Below are positions 10,246-24,133 of a DNA stretch of 64,000 nucleotides, piece after piece. How positions within the stretch are numbered: position 1 is the first letter of the stretch; every line of letters begins with the position of its first letter. Both the position numbers and the translations under genes were made by a program. The DNA is taken from sequence record NZ_OX291475.1; one strand, given 5' to 3'. A model generated the notes under the pieces. It saw only the letters and a program-made list of their open reading frames with translations, was not told the DNA's origin and did not search any database. This DNA is from a plasmid.

Positions 10246-11022
10246 TCATGTTCCTTTCAGCATGGCAATGGCGTCAAGTTCCGGCATCGAGAACTGCACC
10301 CGATGCCGCGCCGCCACATCCAGCGCAAACACCTTCGTATAGACCTCCGTGGAGCTGATCGACTTGTGTCCCATCAGCGACTGCAGCACCTTGAGTGGAA
10401 TTCCGGCATACAGCATGTGCATCGCGTAGCTGTGGCGGAAGGTGTGCGGGGTGATAGGCACCGAGAACGTCACACCATCCTGCGCTGCCGCGTCCACGGC
10501 CTCGGCCAGCCAGCTGCGCACCGTTCTGTCAGTGATTGTCCACAGGCGTACTTTCTCCATGCGACCGGTTTTGGGGTCCCGGCGTTCCAGCGGAATTTTC
10601 AGCGTGGCCACCATGGTCTGCAGCTGTGCAACGTATAACGGATCAGACAGCGGCACCAGGCGGTGTGCCGAGCTGCCGGCCGGGAGCCGGCCTGCGGTTC
10701 GCGCGGTTTTCTCTGCCCGCTGCTTGAGCGTGGCCAACTGCGCGAACGGGTAGGGCGATGCCAGCGAAAAATCCCCCCTTGTCAGCGCCAGCGCTTCGTT
10801 AATCCGGGCGCCGGTATTCCATAGCGTAGCCAGCAACATCTTGCGGTGCAGATCCGGCACATAGTGGAACAGGGCGCTCACCTCCGGAGCCAGCAGGTAT
10901 TTCGGCAGTTCGTCCTGTACCAGTGCCATCTGGCGCAGCGCCAGCGCAGCCGGGTAGTCGATGGACACCGGCAGCTGAGCTGCAGTTCCTGGCTGCTGCC
11001 CCAGGGTAACGAGCCCAGCCAT
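10246..11022 (-). CDS. tyrosine site-specific recombinase (phage-integrase/XerD-like catalytic domain)
   Basis: 258 aa; R..HTFRHSYAMHMLYAGIPL..LMGHKSISSTEVYT catalytic box II with nucleophile Tyr. Confidence 0.8.
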   Translation of the reverse strand: MAGLVTLGQQPGTAAQLPVSIDYPAALALRQMALVQDELPKYLLAPEVSALFHYVPDLHRKMLLATLWNTGARINEALALTRGDFSLASPYPFAQLATLKQRAEKTARTAGRLPAGSSAHRLVPLSDPLYVAQLQTMVATLKIPLERRDPKTGRMEKVRLWTITDRTVRSWLAEAVDAAAQDGVTFSVPITPHTFRHSYAMHMLYAGIPLKVLQSLMGHKSISSTEVYTKVFALDVAARHRVQFSMPELDAIAMLKGT

Positions 11023-11840
11023 CAGGATGCCTCTCCGGCTGGAGGTATGTTCAGTGCTGACGCTATAATTTCCCGGTTTTCCTCATTACGCAAGTTACCG
11101 AAATAGCCCACTTCCAGGCGCAGGGACTGGTGTGCCGCCTCTATAAGGTCAGAGACGCTCTGCAGGGCATTCTGTAGCTGCTGCGCGGATATCGCTCTTG
11201 GCACATCATGTTCATCCACGCCGTTACGGTGTACCAGGTCGTTTCGCCAGTCTGCGATCATGCTCAGCGGCTCAACCGGCCAGATGGGGGGGATGTGCAG
11301 CACGGCGCCGAAATAGCGCTCAATGGTTTCAACGTTATGAAACGTCATTCGGGAAACAAAATTCTGCGCCGCAGGCCGGAACAGGGACAGATCCATGTCA
11401 CGGGCAGCATGTTTTTCCGGATTTTTGATTCGTTTGGACTTCATGTAATACGCATCCCTGAAGCGTTTAAGGGGCCAGTCATGTTCTAGCAGGGCCCTGG
11501 CGCAGTACATCAGGTACGCCTCCATGACAGTCACGGCATGGACGAAAGACATCCTGTACACCAGTTCAGGCTGCTCTTTATCGAGCAGGGCATATAACTT
11601 CTTCAGCTCCTGATTTGCGTGCAGGTAACGCTGATGAACATTGTTCAGGGAAGCCACAAACAGCCCGTGTTCATGATCCCACTGAGCCTGATCGGCAAGC
11701 GCCTCCTGCTCCCAGTAGTACAAGTTCGCGGCATGCTCCCATTCTTCAGAGTCGGGGACAACATCCGGGTAATTTTCCGCAAGCCATTCATCAAATCGTT
11801 CAGCTTCAATATCCAACATCAGGTCTTTCATGCTTCCCAT
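11022..11840 (-). CDS. hypothetical protein with C-terminal Rx4H (HEPN-like) motif, translationally coupled upstream of the recombinase
   Basis: Start at MGSMKDLML; contains ..IADWRNDLVHRNG..; stop overlaps recombinase ATG (ATGA). Confidence 0.4.
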   Translation of the reverse strand: MGSMKDLMLDIEAERFDEWLAENYPDVVPDSEEWEHAANLYYWEQEALADQAQWDHEHGLFVASLNNVHQRYLHANQELKKLYALLDKEQPELVYRMSFVHAVTVMEAYLMYCARALLEHDWPLKRFRDAYYMKSKRIKNPEKHAARDMDLSLFRPAAQNFVSRMTFHNVETIERYFGAVLHIPPIWPVEPLSMIADWRNDLVHRNGVDEHDVPRAISAQQLQNALQSVSDLIEAAHQSLRLEVGYFGNLRNEENREIIASALNIPPAGEAS

Positions 11841-12174
11841 AACACCTGTACCTCTCTGTGTGGTTTTATAAATGAGAAATCCCGACGCTGGCGACGGCGC
11901 AGGCATCTCGGGGTGAACGCCGGCACCACTAAACCGCTCATGCGTTATTCCTCTCGGCCAGTCGTTGCTCGTTCCGCGACTTTCGCTCTTTGCGCCAGCA
12001 TTGCCACAGCGTTTTCTGCGGAGACCAGCGGTATTTGTCGAGGCGGGAAGAGGGTATGCCGGTGATCTGCGGCCACAGGCCGGCGCTGTCTTTGACGATC
12101 TTCACGCCCTCAGTGGCAATAAACCAGTCACCCATGTGTGTTCCTTATTATTAAGTGCAAAATCACGCCCACCG

Positions 12175-12534
12175 TCAGGGTTGTTCAGCCGCAGCGCTGG
12201 CGATCGCATCCACTGCTTGTTTAACCGAAAAGGACAATCCATCCTTATCTTTCGGTGAAAAATGTACCCAGTAGCACAGATACGTACCGTAGTTCTGGTC
12301 GGTATGACGAGTTTCATAATTTACGCTGAATGCGTAAACCCCCCGGTTGCCCAGGCGATGGTCTGTGATTTCGCAGTAACGCAGATAAAGGTCGCGCAAT
12401 TCATCAAACAACCCTCCCTCTTTCAGCGGACCCACTGCTTTGACTGCTTCACGCTGATCCATGAAATAGTCCACGGCGGCTTTTTTGGATTTAAATTCCT
12501 TCTGCCCAATCTTCACAGGTTTTGAACGTCCCAT
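12175..12534 (-). CDS. hypothetical small protein (possibly DUF3223-like)
   Basis: 119 aa ORF; family guess is from memory only. Confidence 0.4.
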   Translation of the reverse strand: MGRSKPVKIGQKEFKSKKAAVDYFMDQREAVKAVGPLKEGGLFDELRDLYLRYCEITDHRLGNRGVYAFSVNYETRHTDQNYGTYLCYWVHFSPKDKDGLSFSVKQAVDAIASAAAEQP

Positions 12535-13216
12535 CCTGAACCCCTTTTGTTAACAGTGAAATAATCACACCCCGTAATCACCCCATCATCACGCCAGTGA
12601 TGATGATCGCCCTCGCAGTTACCCGCCAAAAACATAACCAATATGATAATAAGCAGGAATATAATCACTCAAGTAAATTACAGGATACCCGTCCCGGCAT
12701 GATCCGATTTTTCTTCATATAACAACTTTCCGGAAGTCTACCACGCACAGGAAATAAGCAAAGCGGCGTTTTTCGGTGCCGCGCACCGGGTCACAGGGCA
12801 GGGCGACAACACAACATATAGATGAAAAAGCAGCTGACGATGTGGCACATATTGTGTTTTTCTGCCACTACACGCCGGGCCGGGTGAAGAAGATCCGGGA
12901 CCACCAGAAATCGGATCTGCGTATGAAGAGAATGGAACTACTGCCTCTATGGCAATAAACAACATTTATTATTGCCTTAGTAGCACTGTTGTCATAAATG
13001 CAATAATTGAAATAATCTATTGCATCATGAGTAACTTCTGAAGCTGTTTGCCGCTCGCTCTCATCCTTAACCTGATTAATGCCGGTCGGGTTCAGATCAA
13101 ATATTTATTAACCGGTGATGGAAATAAAATGAAGCCGGAACGGGATCGCCCTACTATGAATAAAATTATACGGCGCCTCCGGGCATTCATCAGCGACTGA
13201 ATAAAGGTATCAAGGA

Positions 13217-15838
13217 ATGTATCCCGTATTTGAGAATGGATCCTGCTGGGTCAAGGTGGATTTTCATCTTCATACCCGTGCAGATAAAGAATTTCGCTAT
13301 GTCGGGGAACCCGACAGCTATATTCGTGACTACGTCAGTGCCCTGAAAGCGGCTGATGTGGGAGTAGGCGTGATCACCAATCATAATAAATTCGATCCCG
13401 GAGAGTTTAAGGCATTACGCAAAGCCGCGCGCCGTGAAGGCACTGAGCTGCTTCCCGGCGTGGAACTCTCTGTCAATGATGGTCAGGCCGGCGTGCACAC
13501 GCTTGTGGTGTTTGCCGATGACTGGTTCATCAACCCGCAGCAGACGAATCATATTGAAAGTTTCCTGACGGCCACGTTTGCGGGCGTTGATAATTTTGAG
13601 AACGAAAATGCCCGTTCAATAGAAAATATCACTCAGACCATCCAGCGCCTTGACCGGTATGAACGGGATTACTTCATTGTGTTTGCCCACGTTGAAGCCC
13701 CTAACGGGTTATGGCGCGGGTTCAGCCCTGGCCGGATCGGGGAGCTTTTTGATAATGAGCTTGTCCGCCGGCGCGTGATGGGGTTTCAGAAGGTGATGAC
13801 CCACGACCTGCGGGTTAAAATTCACGGCGTTCTTGGTAGGCGCTATCCTGCAGAAGTCCAGGGATGCGATGCCAAAACGCTGGATGACATCGGTGCCAGA
13901 AAAGTCGCCAGCTATCTGAAGCTGGGTGATTACAGTTTTGACGCTGTCCGATTTGCGCTGCAGGATTTCCCGCACCGCGTCAGCGGGGAAAAACCGGCCC
14001 TTATCCACAGCCATATCCGTCAGATAGCATTCGAGGGAGCCGGTTCGCTCGGCGGAACCGTGGTGAAATTATCTCCGGAGCTGAACACCCTGATTGGGAT
14101 CCGCGGCAGCGGAAAATCCTCCATACTTGAAGGGATCCGCTATGCCCTGGACATTCCGTTTGGCGAGAAGGCATCTGACCGCGACTACAAAGAAAATCTG
14201 ATCAGTAATTTACTCAAAAGCGGGGGGAAAATTACCGTCGACGCCGTGTGCCGTCTCGGGCGGGCATATCAGATAACCCGAATTTTCGGCCAGGAACCGC
14301 AGGTCATTTTTGACGGCCAGGCCAGGCACGGGGTCGCGCTCCGGGAAACGGTTCTGCACAAGCCAGTGTATTTTGGCCAGAAAGATCTGTCCAATACCGG
14401 CGCAGGGTTTGAACACGATCTGATTGAAAAGCTGGTCGGTGAGCGACTGGTTCCCGTGCGAGAAAAAATCCGGCAGCAGAATACAGTCGTGCTCGACAGG
14501 TTACGCCTGCTTCGTCGCCTGAAAAAATCGGGAGAAGCACTCTCAGAATGGCAGGCAAAAAAGGCGGATGCGCAGTTCCGCCTGCGCTTTTATGCCCAGC
14601 ATGGCATGGAAGAAAAACTGGAGCGGCAGACCACCTTCGGACGGGACGAGCGCTATCTCAGCAATACCTCTGCCCAGGCAACCCAAGCGCTGGACAGTCT
14701 GCAGGACGGTATCAGGGAGACACTCGACGAGTTGAAGCAGGAGCAGAAACATGAATCAGCGCATAACCAGGCCGAGATCGATGACTATTGTGAGGGATAT
14801 GATCGCTTCACGACCCATCTCAACTCCCTGAACACCATCGTCGACGGCGCCCGCCAGCTCCTCACAGAACTCGATACTAAGCAGCAGGCCTTCCAGCAGA
14901 AAAAGCAGGCGCTGACGGAGGAATTTGCCGAAATAGAGCGAGGCCTTGCAGAAGAGTTGCGGCGGGCCGGGGTGGAAAAAGCCGATCCGGCCGACTTTCT
15001 GAAACTAAAGGCTGGGCTGGAAACTGCGGAAGAGAAAATAGATGAGTTAACCCGGGCTGAAACCAGTCAAGCGTTACAGGAGAAGAGCCTCACAGAAGCG
15101 CTGAGCCGGTTGGCTGAACTCTGGGGGGAAGAGTATCACGAAATTGAAGCCGTGCTGGCCACCATCAACCAGGCAGATTCGCCCTTGAAGATCGTGCCGG
15201 CCTTTGCAAGCGACAAAAAAGCCATGCAATCTTTTCTGAAAGAAACGTTTATTGGCAGCCGGTTGCGGGAAAGTACCTACCAGACCGTAGCTGACGGCTT
15301 CAGCGATTTTGGCGAACTCTGGCTGAACAGGGATAAACTCCAGGGGATTATCAACGGCTCTGCTGAGACGTTCGGTGTGTATCTGGAACAGCAGATAGAA
15401 TCGCTAATCGTCTGGCAGATCCCGAATACCTACACCATTGAATTCCGCGGAAAACCACTGGAACAACACTCGCTGGGTCAGCGCGCCTCCGCATTAATGC
15501 TGTTTGTCCTGAATCAGCAGGATAATGATGTGGTGATCATCGATCAGCCCGAAGACGACCTGGACAATCAGACGATTTATGACGACGTGATTAAAATCAT
15601 CAGGACGATGAAACCCCGCACCCAATTTATCTTTGCCACTCACAATGCCAACATTCCGGTTCTGGGTGACGCAGAGAATGTCTGTGCCTGTGAATATTCA
15701 GACGGAAAGATCCAGGCTGCCGGTGGAGGCGTGGATGCACCTCATGTACAACAGCACATTATTTCGGTGATGGAGGGCGGGCGAGAAGCCTTTGAGCGGC
15801 GCAGGGAAGTTTACGGCTCATGGCTCAGTAAAACCTGA
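13217..15838 (+). CDS. PHP-domain phosphoesterase fused to Rad50/SbcC-like ABC ATPase with central coiled coil
   Basis: 873 aa. N-term PHP signature (VDFHLHTRAD.., ..GVITNHN.., ..VFAHVE..); Walker A GIRGSGKSS; Q-loop VYFGQKD; ~200-aa E/K/Q/L-rich coiled-coil region; signature-like HSLGQRAS; Walker B VVIIDQPEDDLD; H-loop FATHNANI. Confidence 0.8.
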   Translation: MYPVFENGSCWVKVDFHLHTRADKEFRYVGEPDSYIRDYVSALKAADVGVGVITNHNKFDPGEFKALRKAARREGTELLPGVELSVNDGQAGVHTLVVFADDWFINPQQTNHIESFLTATFAGVDNFENENARSIENITQTIQRLDRYERDYFIVFAHVEAPNGLWRGFSPGRIGELFDNELVRRRVMGFQKVMTHDLRVKIHGVLGRRYPAEVQGCDAKTLDDIGARKVASYLKLGDYSFDAVRFALQDFPHRVSGEKPALIHSHIRQIAFEGAGSLGGTVVKLSPELNTLIGIRGSGKSSILEGIRYALDIPFGEKASDRDYKENLISNLLKSGGKITVDAVCRLGRAYQITRIFGQEPQVIFDGQARHGVALRETVLHKPVYFGQKDLSNTGAGFEHDLIEKLVGERLVPVREKIRQQNTVVLDRLRLLRRLKKSGEALSEWQAKKADAQFRLRFYAQHGMEEKLERQTTFGRDERYLSNTSAQATQALDSLQDGIRETLDELKQEQKHESAHNQAEIDDYCEGYDRFTTHLNSLNTIVDGARQLLTELDTKQQAFQQKKQALTEEFAEIERGLAEELRRAGVEKADPADFLKLKAGLETAEEKIDELTRAETSQALQEKSLTEALSRLAELWGEEYHEIEAVLATINQADSPLKIVPAFASDKKAMQSFLKETFIGSRLRESTYQTVADGFSDFGELWLNRDKLQGIINGSAETFGVYLEQQIESLIVWQIPNTYTIEFRGKPLEQHSLGQRASALMLFVLNQQDNDVVIIDQPEDDLDNQTIYDDVIKIIRTMKPRTQFIFATHNANIPVLGDAENVCACEYSDGKIQAAGGGVDAPHVQQHIISVMEGGREAFERRREVYGSWLSKT

Positions 15839-15864
15839 TGCCATCAGGTTCACTGAGCATCCAG

Positions 15865-15889
15865 AAAAAGCCGCAAATGCGGCTTTTTC
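15865..15889 (+). terminator. rho-independent terminator after the PHP-ATPase gene
   Basis: AAAAAGCCGCAAATGCGGCTTTTTCT hairpin plus T-run 27 nt after stop. Confidence 0.6.
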
Positions 15890-16013
15890 TGTTTCCGATT
15901 ATTGGGGTTTTACCGAATCTCATGGTGGTATGTGTGATCCACCGTGGACGCACTCTACAGATATCATTATATTAGTCAGTAAAAATAGACAAACCGCAAG
16001 GGATGGGATTTAC

Positions 16014-16328
16014 ATGACACAGCTTGAATATAATGAGTTACTCGCCTTATACCGCGCCCGTCTGGATATTGCCTCACAAAGAGGTACCTACGCCTCGATG
16101 CTGCAAAGTATCCTTCGAGACATCAGTAATAAGGTCAAACGTGGCGAACTGACAAAAGAGCAAGGTCTCTCGCTGGCGAAAATACTGTTCAATATTTCCG
16201 TAGAACAGTACCACATTGATGGTGTTGAGTCTCTCAATGAGGAAATCAGAAAGGGGTCTCTTGATATTTCTTACGATGCCGCTGACGCTATGGCTGAAAA
16301 AATAGCCGCCATGAAGGCAAATAGATAA
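16014..16328 (+). CDS. hypothetical small helical protein (104 aa)
   Basis: Start MTQLEYNELLALY with AAGGGATGGG RBS; stop overlaps next start (TAATG); AT-rich. Confidence 0.45.
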   Translation: MTQLEYNELLALYRARLDIASQRGTYASMLQSILRDISNKVKRGELTKEQGLSLAKILFNISVEQYHIDGVESLNEEIRKGSLDISYDAADAMAEKIAAMKANR

Positions 16329-16855
16329 TGGCCGATCTCACAACTATCGAATCAGCAGCATCCGCAGTCTGGTCAACACGTGATTATCTTTATACTGCAG
16401 GCGTTTTTGTGGCCGTCATTTCAGCGTGGATTGCAGGTTATAGCGCATATAAAACTGGGAGGCGTGACCTGAATTCATTAGGGGATTCGGAAATCAAGAC
16501 GTTTGAAATGATTGCAAAAGCTGAAAAGGATTTTGCTGAGTTCAATGCACGTCTTACAGATAAAATTGATTTATTTGATGCTGATCCTGCGAACAAAGGT
16601 AAAGAGTATCCCCTCACTGGTGCGGAAACAGGACTGAGTGATTTCTACACACAAAGCGTGTTGAATGCCTATGAAATTGCCTGCCAACGTTACTTGGACA
16701 AAAAACTCGATGGCGAGAGATTTAAAAAAACATATCGAACGAGGCTTAATAAGATTTGTTCCTCACGAGCATATAACCCCATAATTGATGATGGGAGCCA
16801 TAACTACGCAGCATTGAAAAAAGTAAACGACATCTTTAACAATCCTGAAAAGTAA
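16328..16855 (+). CDS. hypothetical membrane-anchored protein (one N-terminal TM helix)
   Basis: 175 aa; YLYTAGVFVAVISAWIAGYSAY hydrophobic segment; followed by hairpin terminator. Confidence 0.45.
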   Translation: MADLTTIESAASAVWSTRDYLYTAGVFVAVISAWIAGYSAYKTGRRDLNSLGDSEIKTFEMIAKAEKDFAEFNARLTDKIDLFDADPANKGKEYPLTGAETGLSDFYTQSVLNAYEIACQRYLDKKLDGERFKKTYRTRLNKICSSRAYNPIIDDGSHNYAALKKVNDIFNNPEK

Positions 16856-16860
16856 ATTTA

Positions 16861-16896
16861 AAGAGCCTGCCAAACACGCAGGCTCTTTAAAAAAAG
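16861..16896 (+). terminator. hairpin terminator
   Basis: AAGAGCCTGCCAAACACGCAGGCTCTTTAAAAAAAG. Confidence 0.5.
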
Positions 16897-17156: not shown

Positions 17157-17831
17157 CTAAAGAAAGATAAATCCCTTCGTAGTAAGCAATGGCCGGGTTC
17201 CTAAAGGTACCGTGAGGTTATATTTTCCAATATTATTTTCCTCATCGTAAGTATCGCCTAATCCTAAAATAACTTCCCTGTTACATAACTCAGGAATATC
17301 ACGACAAAGACTGGCGATAATATTGGTTAAATTATAAATAGATGTATATAAATCAAATCCTCCTGAATATAATTCACCCTTATGCAGGATTTGAGGATCA
17401 TTCGCGAACCCGTCTAAATTATCAAAAACAAAACTCAAGTCTTGGCAATATGTAATCAGTGAATTTTTTTCTTCTAACTTCCAGGGTTGTGATTTTCCAG
17501 ACATAAAAGCACGCAAAGCCTTCGCAACTATATGGATAGGGATAATTATCATTTCATTATGACTAAGTAACATATTTTCATGATTAAAGACAACACGGAT
17601 CTCATCAATATCACCTTGGTGATGATAATAGTTTCTTAAATGCTTGAGGATTTTGAACTCAGGATAACTCATTAAGTCAGTATCAAAATCTTGCTTCAAC
17701 CTGTCATTTAAAGAATGCAAACTATTTAAAAACGTATAAAGTGTTCTACCATTTCTTTTATGGGCACAAGTCACATCCATTAGCTCGAAGCTGCTTTCAA
17801 AAAATCTGTCAATGTACTTTAAATTATCCAT
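17157..17831 (-). CDS. hypothetical Abi-like protein with Rx4H HEPN-type motif
   Basis: 224 aa; ..ILKHLRNYYHHQGD.. ; AT-rich, in island with two other Rx4H proteins. Confidence 0.4.
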   Translation of the reverse strand: MDNLKYIDRFFESSFELMDVTCAHKRNGRTLYTFLNSLHSLNDRLKQDFDTDLMSYPEFKILKHLRNYYHHQGDIDEIRVVFNHENMLLSHNEMIIIPIHIVAKALRAFMSGKSQPWKLEEKNSLITYCQDLSFVFDNLDGFANDPQILHKGELYSGGFDLYTSIYNLTNIIASLCRDIPELCNREVILGLGDTYDEENNIGKYNLTVPLGTRPLLTTKGFIFL

Positions 17832-18178: not shown

Positions 18179-18916
18179 TCATTGTAAGGGGCGGTGTTTA
18201 TTCTTATGATATTCCTGCACGGTGGAATTTATCGCTTCCACATATCGCGAGATTTCATCCACAGCGAAATTCAGGAAATTATTCTTGAGCAGGACTGTAT
18301 TGAAGCAAGTGACCGAAATTGCCTCGCTTGCCTTGCTAATAGCGCGCAACTGTCTTTTCTCGCTGTCTTTTTTTGCACGTGTCATTTTCAGCAGCTGATG
18401 ATACTCGTGAGCAACACCGTCGGCATGTGCCATTATATTCCTGATGATAGTCAGGTGATCAACATCGGCAATATCCTTCTTTCCGTAGATGGTGGTCAGC
18501 ATGTCGTGGGTTTTTTCAATCATTCCCCCCTTGAGTATTTCCGTATGCCCAGAAAGGCGAATCATCAATTCCAGGCAATTACTCATACGTTGCTCGAACA
18601 GGCCAAATATTGTCAAAAATGCAGAGCGCCGTGTCAGTTGGGTAATTAAATTAACGTACTGTAATTTGACTTCCTCGACATCGTTACCTACACACGACCC
18701 GCAGGAGTAATAGGTATACCATACCTGTCTGTAAGATCCATCCTCATTCTCCAGGTAGTCCTCAATTATATCTTCCGTGATAAAATCAGGCTCATCCACT
18801 GCTTTAACTTCGCGAATGATATTAGCTTCAGCCTGTTGAGCAAGCATCTTCATGACAGAAATTGACGAAGACGCTTCCCATAAAGGAACACTAAACAGAC
18901 ACTCTAGTTTTGCCAC
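18179..18916 (-). CDS. hypothetical protein with Rx4H HEPN-type motif
   Basis: 245 aa; ..TIIRNIMAHADGV.. Confidence 0.4.
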   Translation of the reverse strand: MAKLECLFSVPLWEASSSISVMKMLAQQAEANIIREVKAVDEPDFITEDIIEDYLENEDGSYRQVWYTYYSCGSCVGNDVEEVKLQYVNLITQLTRRSAFLTIFGLFEQRMSNCLELMIRLSGHTEILKGGMIEKTHDMLTTIYGKKDIADVDHLTIIRNIMAHADGVAHEYHQLLKMTRAKKDSEKRQLRAISKASEAISVTCFNTVLLKNNFLNFAVDEISRYVEAINSTVQEYHKNKHRPLQ

Positions 18917-19039: not shown

Positions 19040-20110
19040 TCAGGCCTTTTTAACAGCAGTGGCTATTGGCTGACCACCTTGTTGCGTACTCTGCTCCGGC
19101 TCAAATGTAACCCTGTCATGCACCGCATAAGCGTTCATGCCCCCCACAAAGGCACCGGCAAAGGCAGTAAAGGTCTTTTTGTCCTTTTCGCTTTGAATCA
19201 TCACTATCTGGCTTGCCACGTTAATATTAACAACAACGCCAGTATGACGGGTTTCCAGCAGTGTATTTCCCAGCCACTGTTCACCACTAATAATGTCAAG
19301 TTCGGAAAGGCCGGCTGGCAGTCTCTTGTTTTTCCACAACGAGTGCGGACTGCATAGCTCGTTTACATTTTGGGTGTTTTCAATAATGCTCAACAATTTT
19401 AGATTAGACGGGTTGATCCATCGAATCACCTCGATACAGCGATGATATTCACGGGCAACTTTATTAATGGCCTGTTCGACAGAGTAGGTTTTATCAGAAC
19501 GCCATAATGGCTCGTGATGGGATATTCTGTTACGTAACGTATTTATATCCCGGAGATCTGCACCAATTCTGTTTATTGATAATGCTTTGCCATTTTTATT
19601 GGCATGGGGAAAAACGCGTGAAGTCAAGTCCGGCCATAAAGAAAGATAGTTGCAATAATTGGCATGAGTACGATCATATTTCTTGTCGACCAATGACACC
19701 CAAAATCCGAGTGTTAACTTTGAGATGAGATTTTCTGTTGTGTGCGGCTTTCCATCTTTATTAAGTTGACCTTTTGCCGCCGCGATAGCTTTAAACGATG
19801 TATTGTTGTTTGCCTGCGTCATTACAGTTACAAACCACTTATCATCGATATTCCCTTTCTTCTGCGCCCAGGTTGGTTGAGGATGGAGCCGTTTTATTTC
19901 ATCTTCTTCGAAAGCCTGTTTGGCCCCGCAAATGGCATTCCTTAATGAGACCTCGATCACCTGCAGTGCGGGAAGGAATGCGCCGGCGAGCTGTTTATTC
20001 CATAGATAAATGCCCAGGCACTCTTCTGGTGTGGCGCCGTTGAAAACGGAAGATTGGTAGGTTGCAAATCGGTGCTGTGATATAGAGCTTAAAATAGCCG
20101 CAATCGTCAT
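19040..20110 (-). CDS. Abi_2 (AbiD/AbiF)-like abortive-infection protein (HEPN superfamily)
   Basis: 356 aa; ..INTLRNRISHHEPLW.. resembles the conserved R-N-x-x-S/A-H-H motif I recall for the Abi_2 family. Confidence 0.5.
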   Translation of the reverse strand: MTIAAILSSISQHRFATYQSSVFNGATPEECLGIYLWNKQLAGAFLPALQVIEVSLRNAICGAKQAFEEDEIKRLHPQPTWAQKKGNIDDKWFVTVMTQANNNTSFKAIAAAKGQLNKDGKPHTTENLISKLTLGFWVSLVDKKYDRTHANYCNYLSLWPDLTSRVFPHANKNGKALSINRIGADLRDINTLRNRISHHEPLWRSDKTYSVEQAINKVAREYHRCIEVIRWINPSNLKLLSIIENTQNVNELCSPHSLWKNKRLPAGLSELDIISGEQWLGNTLLETRHTGVVVNINVASQIVMIQSEKDKKTFTAFAGAFVGGMNAYAVHDRVTFEPEQSTQQGGQPIATAVKKA

Positions 20111-20493
20111 AATATCTCCTTGATGTCCGATGAGTATATCAAAGCGCTTGACGTGAGCAAAAATTTGAAGGATGATGTGCCCCAGAGACAGGATCTCTAA
20201 CTGTGTGAGCGACTATGCCGGTGATAAATCACCCGCTAGGTTGCGAAATTTTCAAAGAAGGCTTCCTCCGGGGAGCCTTTTTTGATTGTGTCGATCAATG
20301 CACTAGCCAGCATTCTCCACTCACCTTCACCATATTCATCCGTATTTCAATCAAGCCCGTCACTCAGCCTACAAGTTCCGAAGAATTAGTTTGCCTAGAC
20401 ACGCCTGTGAATAACGCTTTGTTCGAAATCCCGCACCACCACTGAAGCTATAGCTATACTTTGGCCATGTCGACACAAAAGGATCACCTGCCT

Positions 20494-21180
20494 ATGTGTG
20501 GCCGTTTTGCCCAGTTCCATAGCCGAGAGGAATTTATCACCGCCCTGCGATCCGAAACGCCAATGATCACCACCGGTGACTGGCATGCACGGTATAACGT
20601 TGCCCCTGGCACGCCGGTACCGCTGTTCCATCATCATGATGATCAGCTGCAGCTAACACCGGTTGACTGGGGCTATGCGCCGATATGGTGGCGAGAGCAG
20701 GGAAAACCGCCACTCATCAACGCCCGCGTCGAAACCGCCGCAAGCAGCCGGATGTTCACGCCGCTCTGGAAACATGGCCGTGCGTTGGTACCGGCATCAG
20801 GTTGGTACGAATGGAAAAAGTCCCCGGACAATCCGAAACTGAAGCAACCGTATTTCATCTATCCCGCCGATCGCAGCCCGCTGTTCTTCGCCGCGTTGTG
20901 CTCCACTGATCCGGAAGAAGCTGGCAGCTTCGTCATCATCACGGCCGCCAGTCATGACGGTCTGGCGGATATTCATGATCGGCGCCCACTGGCGCTGCCG
21001 GCAGCCGCCGCACGCGACTGGCTCGATAGCCGGTTGACCCCGCCGCCAGGCGACATGTTGGCCGACGTTTATAGCCTGCAGGCGGATGATTTCAACTGGC
21101 AACCGGTCTCGCCGGCGGTAGGTGCCGTTCGCAATGACAATCCCTCACTCATCCTTGCCATCGATACACCAACGGTCTGA
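20494..21180 (+). CDS. SOS-response-associated peptidase (SRAP / YedK-HMCES family)
   Basis: Starts MCGRFAQ (catalytic Cys2); 228 aa; directly upstream of umuDC. Confidence 0.75.
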   Translation: MCGRFAQFHSREEFITALRSETPMITTGDWHARYNVAPGTPVPLFHHHDDQLQLTPVDWGYAPIWWREQGKPPLINARVETAASSRMFTPLWKHGRALVPASGWYEWKKSPDNPKLKQPYFIYPADRSPLFFAALCSTDPEEAGSFVIITAASHDGLADIHDRRPLALPAAAARDWLDSRLTPPPGDMLADVYSLQADDFNWQPVSPAVGAVRNDNPSLILAIDTPTV

Positions 21181-21376: not shown

Positions 21377-21793
21377 ATGAACACTAGAGAATTGTACTTT
21401 TTTTCACCAGGTCAGCCGGTAAAACTCCCACTCTACGGGACACCATGTCCGGCAGGCTTCCCCAGCCCTGCCGACGATTACATTGAACAATCCATTGATT
21501 TAAATGATTTTATCCGACATCCGGCCGCCACGTATTTTATCCGCGCATCGGGAGAGTCAATGAGTGAGGGCGGCATACTGTCAGGAGATTTGCTGATTGT
21601 CGATCGGGCTGAAAAACCCGTGCATGGTAGCATCGTGATCGCCGCGGTCGACGGCGAGTTTACTGTCAAGCGGCTGCTGCTGACACCCAGGGTTTGTCTG
21701 GCGCCGATGAATCCTGCCTACAGTCCTATTTATCCCGAAACGCTGGAAATTTTCGGGGTGGTGATCCACGCCCTGCACTCATTTGGAAGGTGA
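21377..21793 (+). CDS. umuD: UmuD translesion-synthesis accessory protein (LexA-like S24 peptidase)
   Basis: 138 aa; ..[13 protein letters not shown].., ..ASGESM.. Ser-Lys dyad region; close to E. coli UmuD. Confidence 0.85.
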
Positions 21794-21795
21794 TC

Positions 21796-22730
21796 ATGTT
21801 TATGCTGGCTGACGTCAATTCGATGTACTGTGCCTGCGAACAGGTCTTCCGGCCGGATCTGAAAGGCCGTCCGGTGGCCGTGCTTTCGAATAACGACGGT
21901 GCCCTGGTGGCGATCAACCGGGAGGGAAAACAACTCGGTCTTAAACGCGGCATGCCATTTTTTCAGGCCAAAGAAATCATTAAAAATCAAAATGTCACTG
22001 TTTTCTCTAGCAATTATTCTTTGTACGGCGACATGTCGGCGCGCTGCATGACGATTTTAGAATCTCTCGCGCCGGCGATTACGATCTACAGCATCGACGA
22101 GGCATTCCTTCACGTTGCCGGCATCGATGCCACAGAGTCATTCGAAGACTATGGCCGGCGCGTTCGCGATACCGTTTTACAGCAGACGGGACTCACCTGC
22201 GGGATCGGTGTCGCCCAGACGATGACGCTTGCCAAACTCGCGAATCACGCTGCGAAAACCTGGCCGGCCACCGGTGGGGTTGTCGATCTGACGAACCGCG
22301 ATCGACAACGCAAATTGATGGGGCTGCTGCCAGTCAACGAAGTTTGGGGATGTGGGCGCCAGTTGACTAAAAAGCTGGCTGCGATGGGGATCACCACAGC
22401 ACTGCAGCTGGCCGACAGCAACCAGGCGTTGATCCGCAGGACGTTCGGGGTTGTGCTCGAGCGCACCGTGCGTGAACTGAACGGTGTGCCATGTATCTCA
22501 ATCGATGCGCTGCCGGCAAAGCAGCAGATCATCGTCAGCCGGTCATTTGGCCAGCGCGTTACGCAGCTGCAGGACATGCGCCAGGCGGTGTGCCAGTACG
22601 CCGAGCGGGCCGCCGAAAAACTTCGCCGAGAGAAGCAATATTGCCGGCACATTTCGGTGTTCGCGCGAACCAGCCCATTTTCGCCTCATGATCCCTATTA
22701 CGCGAACAGCAACAGCGTGCGGCTCATGCT
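21796..22730 (+). pseudogene. umuC: umuC 5' fragment (DNA polymerase V catalytic subunit), interrupted by transposon insertion
   Basis: MFMLADVNSMYCACEQVFRPDL.. start overlapping umuD stop; reading frame runs into transposon IR at 22731; missing C-terminus found in frame at 41248-41580. Confidence 0.85.
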
Positions 22731-24133
22731 GGGGTCAGTTTGGATATCGAAAATTATTGTACTATAAGGGCTTCCCCGGCATGTCAACGCCGGTGTTTAC
22801 GGTTTCTGTCTGCACTATAGTAAAAAAATAAAGGGGAGAGACTGCGGTACTATAAACGGTCATGATGAATCGTCATCGATTCGGACCCTGATGAAAGACG
22901 CTCGTGAGGCTCTAGTTCGTTAGTCGGGTACACTTGCCCTGTACAATAAGCAGATATACCTCACGGGGTCTAACCCTTTATCATCAACGAGTTGCAGAAC
23001 AGATGGTCATACAGCTTTGTACTTTAGCTGGCTGAGTACAACCTGAAATCATCACCGTAATGCAATGATGCCCAGCACAGTCTTGCATTTTTGGCAGCGA
23101 TGGCAACAACAGCGCGCCAGTATCCTCTGCGTTCGACCAGTGAGCAGACCCAACGACTGAATAAATCAGTCCTTTTCTCCGCCCCGATCAGTACCGAGCG
23201 GGCACCCTGAACCAGAAGTGTTCTCAGATACGAATCGCCAGCTTTCGTTATCCTGCCAAGCTTCGACTTTCCGCCGCTGCTGTACTGCGATGGTGTCAGT
23301 CCCAGCCAGGCTGCCAGCTGGCGCCCATTCTTAAAATCATGTGCATTACCGATACTGGCGACCAGCGCACAGGCCGTTGTGGGGCCAACGCCCTTCAATT
23401 CCATCAGCCGCTGACTGCGATGATCTGTTTTGGCCATGCGGGACAAAATTCGGTCATATTCAGCGATGTTATCTTCAATGCGAGCAACGTGCTCCAGCAA
23501 ATCATCAACACATTGCTGAACCTGAAGTGGTAAAGAATTCTTCTGCTCAAAAACTATGTGGCGCAGGGCATCTGTACTTTGTGGGGCGATAACGCCGAAT
23601 TCAGATATCAACCCCCGGAGACGATTATATGTTGCTGTTTTCTCTTCGATAAAACCCTGTCGGGTACGATGCAGACACTGCATTGCCTGCTGGCTCTCAT
23701 CCTTAACCGGCACAAACCGCATATGTGGGCGACGAACCGCCTCGCAGATAGCCTGAGCATCAGCTGCATCATTTTTCCCTGATTTACCAGCCATGCGGTA
23801 AGGCGATACAAATTTAGCGGCCATCAGACGCGGCTCATGACCATACTGCCGAAACAGTCTTGCCCAGTAATGAGCCCCGGAGCACGCCTCCATCCCGATA
23901 ACACAGGGCGGCAAACCAGCAATCAGCCCGGGAAGAGCTGCGCGGGTTACTCTGGATTTAACCAGAACGGTTTTGCCATTCTGGTCAACGCAATGAACAG
24001 CGAACACATTTTTAGCAAGATCGATACCGACAGTAGTAATGGTCATAACGAATCCCTCCGGGGTTGTGTTTACCCCATGATTGCACAAGAGTTAATCAGG
24101 CACATAATCAGGGGAAGTCCCTTCCATTCGTTA
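22731..24133 (-). mobile_element. IS110-family insertion sequence (copy 1) occupying the terminal inverted repeat of the outer transposon
   Basis: Inverted duplicate of 39845-41247; outer 28 bp GGGGTCAGTTTGGATATCGAAAATTATT and inner ..CATTCGTTAAG look like split halves of a Tn3-type IR; IS ends show AAGGG(A)CTTCCCC inverted repeats. Confidence 0.6.
23024..24088 (-). CDS. IS110-family transposase (DEDD)
   Basis: 354 aa; MTITTVGIDLAKNVFAVHCVDQNGK.. N-terminus; identical copy at 39890-40954(+). Confidence 0.85.
   Translation of the reverse strand: MCNHGVNTTPEGFVMTITTVGIDLAKNVFAVHCVDQNGKTVLVKSRVTRAALPGLIAGLPPCVIGMEACSGAHYWARLFRQYGHEPRLMAAKFVSPYRMAGKSGKNDAADAQAICEAVRRPHMRFVPVKDESQQAMQCLHRTRQGFIEEKTATYNRLRGLISEFGVIAPQSTDALRHIVFEQKNSLPLQVQQCVDDLLEHVARIEDNIAEYDRILSRMAKTDHRSQRLMELKGVGPTTACALVASIGNAHDFKNGRQLAAWLGLTPSQYSSGGKSKLGRITKAGDSYLRTLLVQGARSVLIGAEKRTDLFSRWVCSLVERRGYWRAVVAIAAKNARLCWASLHYGDDFRLYSAS

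Follow-up and report, generated by a model that had tools for sequence, protein, structure and literature searches.

The 64,000-nucleotide stretch of plasmid DNA analysed here (the window; sequence record NZ_OX291475.1) carries, at 13217–15838 on the plus strand, a gene whose product, judged by its profile match, belongs to the TrlF family. The protein joins a putative metal-dependent nuclease domain of the PHP (polymerase-histidinol-phosphatase) fold to an SMC-like ABC ATPase, into the head of which a coiled coil of about 250 residues is inserted. The new point is the loss of the usual partner of the family, TrlG, in the plasmid lineage to which this gene belongs. The solo trlF of Enterobacterales moves between plasmids and chromosomal islands as a self-contained promoter–gene–terminator cassette, and it is under purifying selection and not decaying. 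By analogy with the anti-phage protein Ppl, we think it probable, though well short of certain, that the solo protein is an autonomous DNA-sensing nuclease used for defence.

The trlF open reading frame (ORF) is initiated by ATG and runs uninterrupted for 873 codons. The NCBIfam equivalog model 'TrlF family AAA-like ATPase' (NF045780, cutoff 350 bits) matches the protein with 539.3 bits (E 2.8e-161), aligning residues 7–867 to positions 1–944 of a profile of 944, and the RefSeq TrlF name is already attached to copies of 88–92% identity on more than 100 plasmids; the family name suggested in the initial annotation was therefore the right one. TrlF is a large family, with matches in more than 4,900 clusters at 90% identity; an exhaustive search returned 591 representatives at 50% identity (E ≤ 1e-30), most members being full-length proteins of 860–920 residues from many phyla.

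Four regions can be delimited in the protein. Residues 8–262 (13238–14002) make up the PHP-fold domain and residues 263–397 (14003–14407) the N-lobe of the ATPase head, which contains the Walker A motif (G294–S302) and the Q-loop (Q388) and is matched by Pfam SMC_N and AAA_23. An antiparallel coiled coil follows (residues 398–650; 14408–15166), and residues 651–873 (15167–15838) form the ATPase C-lobe, with the signature motif S752-LGQR, Walker B (772–779), the D-loop (D780/D781), the H-loop (H809) and a match to Pfam AAA_21. The PHP and ATPase motifs that had been read from the sequence at the outset are all present, and they are invariant or near-invariant in an alignment of 28 TrlF-family sequences of 53–92% identity (alignment A1). 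In the PHP domain these are DFHLHT (D15, H17, H19), D23, NHN (N55-H56-N57), ELS (E83), GVHT (H94) and AHVE (A157-H158-V-E160); in the ATPase they are Walker A GIRGSGKSS (294–302), the Q-loop GQKD (G387, Q388), the signature SLGQRAS (752–758), Walker B and D-loop IIDQPEDD (774–781) and the H-loop ATHN (T808, H809). The putative metal ligands H17, H19, D23, H56, E83, H94, H158 and D218 occupy invariant columns in alignment A2, which includes a true Ppl, and the TrlF barrel thus has eight of the nine canonical ligand positions, the ninth being K220, a lysine throughout the family.

An AlphaFold2 model built on A1 (mean predicted local distance difference test score, pLDDT, 74.7) and Foldseek comparisons divide the protein into PHP and ABC/SMC ATPase parts as had been proposed. 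The model shows a beta/alpha barrel at residues 10–250, with pLDDT values of 80–90 in the N-terminal domain, and then an ATPase head broken by four long helices, which DSSP places at 398–461, 465–506, 518–576 and 591–650. The coiled coil of the model is longer than the ~200 residues first estimated; its apex lies at about 507–517 (QKHESAHNQAE), where S514 and N517 are invariant in A1. Searched against the PDB with Foldseek, the N-terminal domain matches EndoQ (5zb8), RNase AM (7ug9, TMt 0.66), BAD_1165 (3e0f/3o0f), PsfC and the PHP domain of Pol III alpha, and the ATPase with its coiled coil matches JetC (the top match), SMC and condensin heads, RecN, Rad50, MukB, RecF and LmuB. A profile of the N-terminal domain run against the PDB returned solely PHP-family structures (TM0559, YcdX and RNase AM), weakly (E 0.03–0.5), with the HxH, D, H, E and H motifs in register. 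A sequence search of the PDB with the full protein gave no match, and no solved Ppl or TrlF structure was among the sequence or fold search results.

The TrlF name comes from trlR-trlF-trlG, the temperature restriction locus of Photorhabdus laumondii (Hapeshi et al., 2020; PMC7554251), which blocks growth at 36 °C and the transcription of which goes up on a temperature upshift. In that locus trlR encodes a 79-residue helix-turn-helix (HTH) protein, trlF was annotated as a histidinol phosphatase, and trlG, mis-annotated as recG, encodes Alba_2 and HATPase_c_4 domains (PMC7554251). We surveyed 80 species-level TrlF loci (42–58% identity) from Proteobacteria, Planctomycetota, Spirochaetota, Firmicutes, Chlorobi, Verrucomicrobiota and other phyla. 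A TrlG homologue of ~380 residues lies directly downstream on the same strand in 71 of them, its match starting a few bases before the trlF match ends, so as to overlap the trlF stop; most of the rest are contig ends. TrlG combines SLFN_AlbA_2 and HATPase_c_4 domains and resembles the Schlafen-GHKL module of SLFN-pAgo (a PADLOC pAgo match). The description of trlF as a stand-alone unit consequently holds for the solo clade but is atypical of the family.

One Enterobacterales TrlF lineage has lost both TrlG (Schlafen/AlbA_2 plus HATPase_c_4) and TrlR, the small HTH regulator. Neither trlG nor trlR is found in the whole window (best tblastn E 1.6), and no trlR (HTH_73), nor any remnant of trlR or HsdM_N, lies upstream of any solo-clade copy; trlR (HTH_73) is present in Yersinia ruckeri, Methylomonas and P. 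caribbeanensis. The trlG-less state is shared by relatives down to 60% identity, which sit in defence islands or plasmid accessory regions. On plasmids, the solo gene lies between ccdAB/resolvase genes and vapB (Escherichia coli, IncF), adjoins a resolvase gene (Serratia fonticola) or is near Rep3, ParA and a TacA/GNAT toxin–antitoxin pair (Rahnella). In the Yersinia enterocolitica chromosome it is placed between Hachiman (HamA plus helicase), a PemK-like toxin, HEPN_AbiU2 and a KAP NTPase, and in that of Dickeya zeae it adjoins a CAP12-PCTIR TIR protein and CTD6/MC2/AAA_23 conflict-system genes. The complete operon, trlR(HTH_73)-trlF-trlG, is found again in sequences of 59% identity or less, as in Methylomonas. 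In a neighbour-joining tree, computed without bootstrap support, the solo genes form one clade, sister to the TrlG-coupled gammaproteobacterial group that holds the Photorhabdus and Y. ruckeri operons.

The partner-less gene is maintained as a functional coding sequence. Its ratio of nonsynonymous to synonymous substitution rates (dN/dS) against three relatives is 0.12–0.15, the values by domain being lowest in the ATPase N-lobe (0.06), intermediate in PHP (0.11) and the ATPase C-lobe (0.12) and highest in the coiled coil (0.17); all catalytic motifs are retained in the solo clade down to 60% identity. Of the 5,426 complete E. coli genomes, 125 (2.3%) have solo trlF, on plasmids only, and 38 have the E. 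coli-type trlG, each time beside its own trlF within a type I restriction–modification (R-M) operon. It is thus unlikely, at least in E. coli, that solo TrlF depends on a trlG elsewhere in the genome, the trlG count being that of a DNA-level search which very divergent trlG genes would escape. TrlF without TrlG has also arisen independently at least three more times, within defence (R-M) operons. In Planctomycetes the order is SNF2 helicase, N6/N4 methylase, TrlF and ResIII helicase; at one locus (L047) HsdR comes directly after TrlF; others lie beside a Mrr-type endonuclease or a T5orf172 protein.

Plasmid pQC08_2 of Serratia marcescens QC08, a MOBP/MPF_I conjugative plasmid, matches the window at 100% identity. 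The DNA common to 147 plasmids with different backbones (IncF, MOBP and others) is confined to about 12905–15910 of the window and comprises a leader of ~310 nucleotides, trlF and its terminator, the genes outside this block varying from plasmid to plasmid. Since only the block is shared, a monocistronic reading, as first proposed, is supported, and a functional link to the genes at 16014–16855 is argued against. Inside the shared leader is a sigma-70-type promoter-like site on the plus strand (TTGTCA-16-(TG)AATAAT, 12989–13016; 10 of 12 matches, with an extended -10). An operator-like inverted repeat at 12942–12985 (plus strand) abuts the -35 on its upstream side; its core, GCAATAA-N10-TTATTGC (12952–12975), matches once in the 64 kb against 0.03 expected and is conserved in the E. 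coli, S. fonticola and Dickeya copies (alignment A3), which would be consistent with a regulatory role. The cassette has no regulator gene, although the operator-like repeat is conserved. Between promoter and gene is a conserved leader of ~200 nucleotides (13017–13216, plus strand; A3), containing an ORF of 23 codons (13129–13200) and a Shine-Dalgarno-like AAAGGT...AAGGA (13203–13216). Copies from E. coli, S. fonticola and Dickeya conserve the small ORF as well; with 6 nonsynonymous against 4 synonymous changes between window and E. coli, its coding status is uncertain.

Downstream of trlF, an intrinsic terminator hairpin with bidirectional A-run/T-run occupies 15862–15891. Its perfect 14-nucleotide arms (15862–15875 and 15878–15891) give a folding energy of -27.4 kcal/mol (z -4.9), and the shared block ends ~20 nucleotides past it, at about 15910. 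The hairpin noticed initially is real, but it begins 24 and not 27 nucleotides past the stop codon. The AT-rich setting described for the gene applies to the leader (44.6% GC) and the downstream island (42.3%) but not to trlF itself (53.4%). No Rfam family was found in the leader, the sole Rfam match being a sub-threshold one to the terminator hairpin. Three further interpretations of this DNA were rejected: the leader is not a strongly folded RNA (z +1.16, not unusually structured), no remnant was found that would make it a relic of trlR or HsdM_N, and the cassette is not a transposon, as its ends (~12905 and ~15910) bear neither direct nor inverted repeats.

The association of TrlF with defence islands, anticipated in the initial annotation, is real but moderate. 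With a single reference set, 16 of the 80 TrlF loci have type I R-M genes no more than 10 kb away. Among 118 neighbouring ORFs from 22 loci with full flanks, the top recurrent PADLOC and Pfam families are components of type I, type III and MmeI-like R-M systems, and SWI2/SNF2-ResIII helicases and a BrxL protein are also found; some relatives of the window gene are embedded in R-M operons of type I and type III. On the E. coli IncC plasmid pNDM10505 (L005:5032-15795) and in E. coli chromosomes the gene order is hsdR-trlF-trlG-hsdS...hsdM. In pNDM10505 and the 38 complete E. coli genomes in which trlF-trlG is inserted in the type I R-M operon, Tn7-like transposition genes adjoin. A HsdM_N fragment is situated between trlR and trlF in Methylomonas, and at the same place in Y. 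ruckeri pYR3 small fragments are reported that carry the annotation of type I R-M methyltransferase subunit M (PMC7554251). These arrangements suggest that the trlF-trlG pair has repeatedly entered or left type I R-M loci by capture or excision.

The closest characterised homologue is Ppl, for which there is both an NCBIfam model ('anti-phage protein Ppl', NF042955, cutoff 1000 bits) and a PADLOC model. Ppl is said to have been discovered by Gao et al. in 2020. This single-gene system acts against phages, impairing T7 and Bas63, and gp130 of Bas63 counters it (PMC11482910). According to a 2026 review (PMC12904381), Ppl is a 3'-5' exonuclease on single-stranded DNA that is kept inactive by nucleoside triphosphates (NTPs) bound to its PHP and NTPase domains, and it is triggered by phage-induced nucleotide depletion together with 3'-OH ends produced by phage homing endonucleases; the primary mechanism paper is given by citing papers as Xu et al. 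(Mol Cell 2026;86:180). The PHP–ATPase fusion is therefore not undescribed, contrary to what had been proposed: TrlF is a named family and Ppl a validated single-gene PHP–ATPase anti-phage system. Nor do such fusions lack a characterised mechanism, insofar as the citing texts describe the one published for Ppl.

We compared the window protein with the RefSeq-annotated Ppl of E. coli plasmid p94EC-1 (895 residues). The two share 27% identity over residues 8–311, from the PHP domain through Walker A, and 33% over residues 726–864, from the signature through the C-terminus (BLASTP). Both kinds of protein are single polypeptides of ~880–895 residues that begin with a PHP domain and have a helical insert dividing the ABC ATPase head, and both are encoded by stand-alone genes, on IncF plasmids too. 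Unlike Ppl, the TrlF lineage ancestrally had a TrlG partner. The PADLOC Ppl model gives the window protein 127.6 bits in two fragments (1e-37), compared with 1778.8 bits over the full length of the true Ppl. By these sequence comparisons TrlF is a sister family of Ppl and not Ppl itself.

On this analogy solo TrlF would work as a homodimer held together by ATP-sandwiched heads, the Walker A motif of one chain facing the signature of the other, as ABC/SMC biology and Ppl would lead one to expect. The dimer would sense foreign DNA, probably as ends or single-stranded overhangs with a 3'-OH, together with the nucleotide state of the cell, and the PHP domain would then degrade the sensed DNA, protecting the plasmid host from phages and possibly from competing mobile DNA. 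Recent papers report that prokaryotic Schlafen domains act in defence, one of the reported activities being the cleavage of tRNA in type III CRISPR immunity. Where TrlF has its canonical partner, TrlG would probably add a Schlafen-type RNase or abortive arm, and the solo lineage would rely on the PHP nuclease alone, in the manner of Ppl. Architecture, family membership, partner loss, purifying selection and defence-type neighbourhoods are shown by the analysis; we infer dimerisation, nuclease substrate, nucleotide control and a defence phenotype from the systems to which TrlF is related.

Several observations weigh against this reading. The window protein scores 163.9 bits with NF042955, far below its cutoff of 1000, the coiled-coil regions of TrlF and Ppl cannot be aligned by BLASTP, and the last PHP motif is D218-A-K220 in TrlF but the canonical D-A-H in Ppl, with lysine in place of histidine. 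Among the hidden Markov models (HMMs) by which the domains were to be recognised, SMC_N, AAA_23, AAA_21 and NF045780 match, but Pfam PHP (PF02811) finds no match to the protein at E ≤ 0.01, so that the PHP assignment rests on fold, motifs and Ppl homology. The ATPase C-lobe is poorly modelled (pLDDT 46–60), and the tree that unites the solo genes carries no bootstrap values. Of the 28 loci with full flanks, 8 have type I R-M genes within 10 kb; other TrlF loci are flanked by housekeeping genes (polA, gidA, gyrase), and on plasmids trlF adjoins resolvase, partition and toxin–antitoxin genes, a setting that a maintenance role would fit too. Finally, the heat-tolerant mutants of P. laumondii (more than 30) all fell in trlG and none in the larger trlF (PMC7554251); because the phenotype of the locus was mapped to TrlG, Photorhabdus TrlF has no assigned function.

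Four other explanations were considered. PHP domains act in DNA repair in EndoQ and in the Pol X and Pol III proofreading domains, and TrlF could be a maintenance or repair enzyme of the plasmid, processing hairpins, ends and replication or conjugation intermediates in the manner of SbcCD with no role in immunity. The SMC/RecN/Rad50-like fold would suit such a function, as would the proximity of trlF to resD/resolvase, parM/parA, ccdAB and rep genes on IncF and MOBP plasmids. We nevertheless regard it as unlikely, given that the solo clade is also found in chromosomal defence islands, away from any plasmid functions, that relatives are embedded in R-M operons and that the closest characterised homologue is anti-phage; moreover, carriage by just 2.3% of complete E. 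coli genomes on various backbones points to accessory cargo and not to a core maintenance gene. That trlF is instead a stress-triggered growth-restriction or addiction module, harming its host under heat or other stress and not directed at invaders, is suggested by the naming of the family after a locus that stops growth at 36 °C and is induced by temperature upshift, and by the toxin–antitoxin genes beside several copies. The heat phenotype, however, was mapped only to trlG, which is absent here, no trlF mutation was ever selected, and the conserved cassette contains no antitoxin-like partner, all of which makes this explanation rather improbable.

The close packing of trlF in a 9-kb island of HEPN-motif genes would be expected if it worked in a multi-gene system alongside neighbouring genes of the window, be they the pair at 16014–16855 or the HEPN/Abi genes. 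A strong terminator separates trlF from 16014, the downstream pair occurs only in pQC08_2 among the 147 cassette plasmids, and elsewhere the downstream genes differ (vapB, DUF2913, HEPN_AbiU2, MazE), so we give this arrangement very little weight. The overlap of trlG with the trlF stop in 71 of 80 loci could likewise mean that the two are an obligate pair and that solo TrlF is an inert orphan, a leftover that is inactive without TrlG. This is the most doubtful of the four explanations, for dN/dS is 0.12–0.15 overall and low in every domain, no catalytic motif has been lost in a clade whose members are as little as 60% identical, the spread of the gene takes in 147 plasmids as well as chromosomes, and TrlG-less lineages of at least three further independent origins persist inside R-M operons. 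A Ppl-like defence nuclease acting on its own thus remains the explanation that we favour.

TrlF can also be compared with SMC-like DNA-end enzymes and defence ATPases. Its design follows that of SbcCD/Mre11-Rad50, in which an SMC-like ABC ATPase with a coiled coil is coupled to a metal-dependent nuclease that acts on DNA ends, and Rad50 structures are among its Foldseek matches. The TrlF nuclease domain, however, has a PHP and not a calcineurin-like fold, is N-terminal and is fused in cis, and the coiled-coil arms are far shorter, at ~110–130 residues each. The description 'Rad50-like' is apt as an analogy but does not extend to membership: Rad50 and SbcC HMMs score 15–25 bits with the window protein against cutoffs of 700–1087, no CxxC zinc hook occurs anywhere in it, and no separate calcineurin-like nuclease partner of the Mre11/SbcD type is found among the trlF neighbours. 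OLD/GajA (Gabija), AriA (PARIS), LmuB (Lamassu), JetC (Wadjet) and mad3 of MADS have related ATPase heads (PADLOC, 1e-13 to 1e-5) but are combined with other effectors (Toprim, Cap4 and others) or separate subunits, none of them with PHP. The Spaf_1101 family of AAA-like ATPases (NF045781) is a sister NCBIfam family with a common C-terminal ATPase lobe; its cutoff of 475 bits is not reached by the window protein (171 bits), the best match being confined to residues 746–867.

Photorhabdus TrlF is of the same length as the window protein, has the same domains and motifs and is 56% identical to it in the representative P0107, but the window gene is plasmid-borne, lacks trlG and trlR and belongs to a separate Enterobacterales clade. 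P0107, from Photorhabdus luminescens, has a glycine at the equivalent of D218 (EGCGAK for EGCDAK), and P. caribbeanensis keeps the aspartate. If P. laumondii DJC shares this glycine, its PHP site may be impaired, and this could bear on the lack of trlF mutants. In an alignment of 91 TrlF sequences, eight positions are fixed differently in solo and TrlG-coupled proteins (345, 503, 739, 743, 766, 851, 863 and 870), of which six are in the ATPase C-lobe, including its C-terminal helix; they offer a weak hint of where TrlG might contact TrlF. Full-length TrlF, 37% identical to the window protein, also appears in two unannotated Listeria 'phage' records of 18–20 kb (OR848124.1 and OR846775.1), and Listeria monocytogenes plasmids carry a TrlF with identical identity and score to the query. 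The records may therefore be plasmid-derived or transduced DNA and not phage genomes. They were the only matches in the phage collection, in which no P2/P4-type Ppl was found.

In the window, trlF is part of a 9-kb island in which four flanking genes, all on the minus strand, carry the HEPN-type motif RNxxxH. They lie at 11022–11906 (a weak HEPN_RiboL-PSP match), 17157–17831 (224 residues) and 18179–18916 (245 residues), both with no family match, and 19040–20110, which matches Abi_2 and PADLOC PD-T4-5 (1e-31) and is the only one of the four with strong model support. The plasmid defence-island setting first described is borne out, and all four flanking HEPN-like genes carry the motif. Immediately downstream of trlF, two plus-strand genes (16014–16328 and 16328–16855) overlap at ATGA and encode a protein of 104 residues and one of 175 residues with a hydrophobic N-terminal helix. 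This pair has its own promoter-like site (15945–15973) and a strong bidirectional hairpin (16857–16891), and Pfam, NCBIfam and PADLOC searches gave no match for it. Between the resolvase module and trlF, a minus-strand gene at 12175–12534 encodes a protein of 119 residues with a weak PADLOC match to DUF3223/HamC, a Hachiman-associated domain (1e-5). Further downstream, 20461–21180 (plus strand) encodes a 239-residue protein, read from an internal MCGRF, which by eye looks like an abasic-site protein of the SRAP/YedK type, and the next two ORFs (21377–22767, plus strand) look like umuD and umuC.

Much of what bears on the window gene is already known: the PHP–ATPase fusion itself, a named and widely annotated family, and a close analogue with a published mechanism. 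As single-chain PHP–ATPase defence proteins are known, no new principle is established here. In the literature searched, the pairing of TrlF with TrlG across phyla is not described as a defence system, and the search for an AlbA_2/HATPase_c_4 partner as a named defence system found nothing beyond the 2020 Photorhabdus paper. One may speculate, though we think it unlikely to prove correct, that TrlF-TrlG is a phylum-spanning immune system of two nucleases, in which a PHP-SMC DNA sensor and nuclease would be joined to a Schlafen-GHKL effector resembling an RNase. Heat restriction in Photorhabdus would then be a form of autoimmunity, and the plasmid lineage a streamlined, TrlF-only exclusion weapon against DNA with free 3' ends, such as phage genomes and the single-stranded transfer intermediates of rival plasmids.

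The favoured reading, a Ppl-like defence nuclease acting alone, would itself have consequences for the family. If solo TrlF defends by itself, the PHP-SMC module would be a self-sufficient sensor and effector and TrlG an add-on, and partner-less and partnered TrlF would offer a clean natural experiment on the role of TrlG. The mechanism of Ppl, with its sensing of DNA ends and of the nucleotide pool, would then hold for a family of far greater size (591 clusters at 50% identity), and the conjugative IncF and MOBP plasmids of clinical Enterobacterales would carry one more defence cargo.

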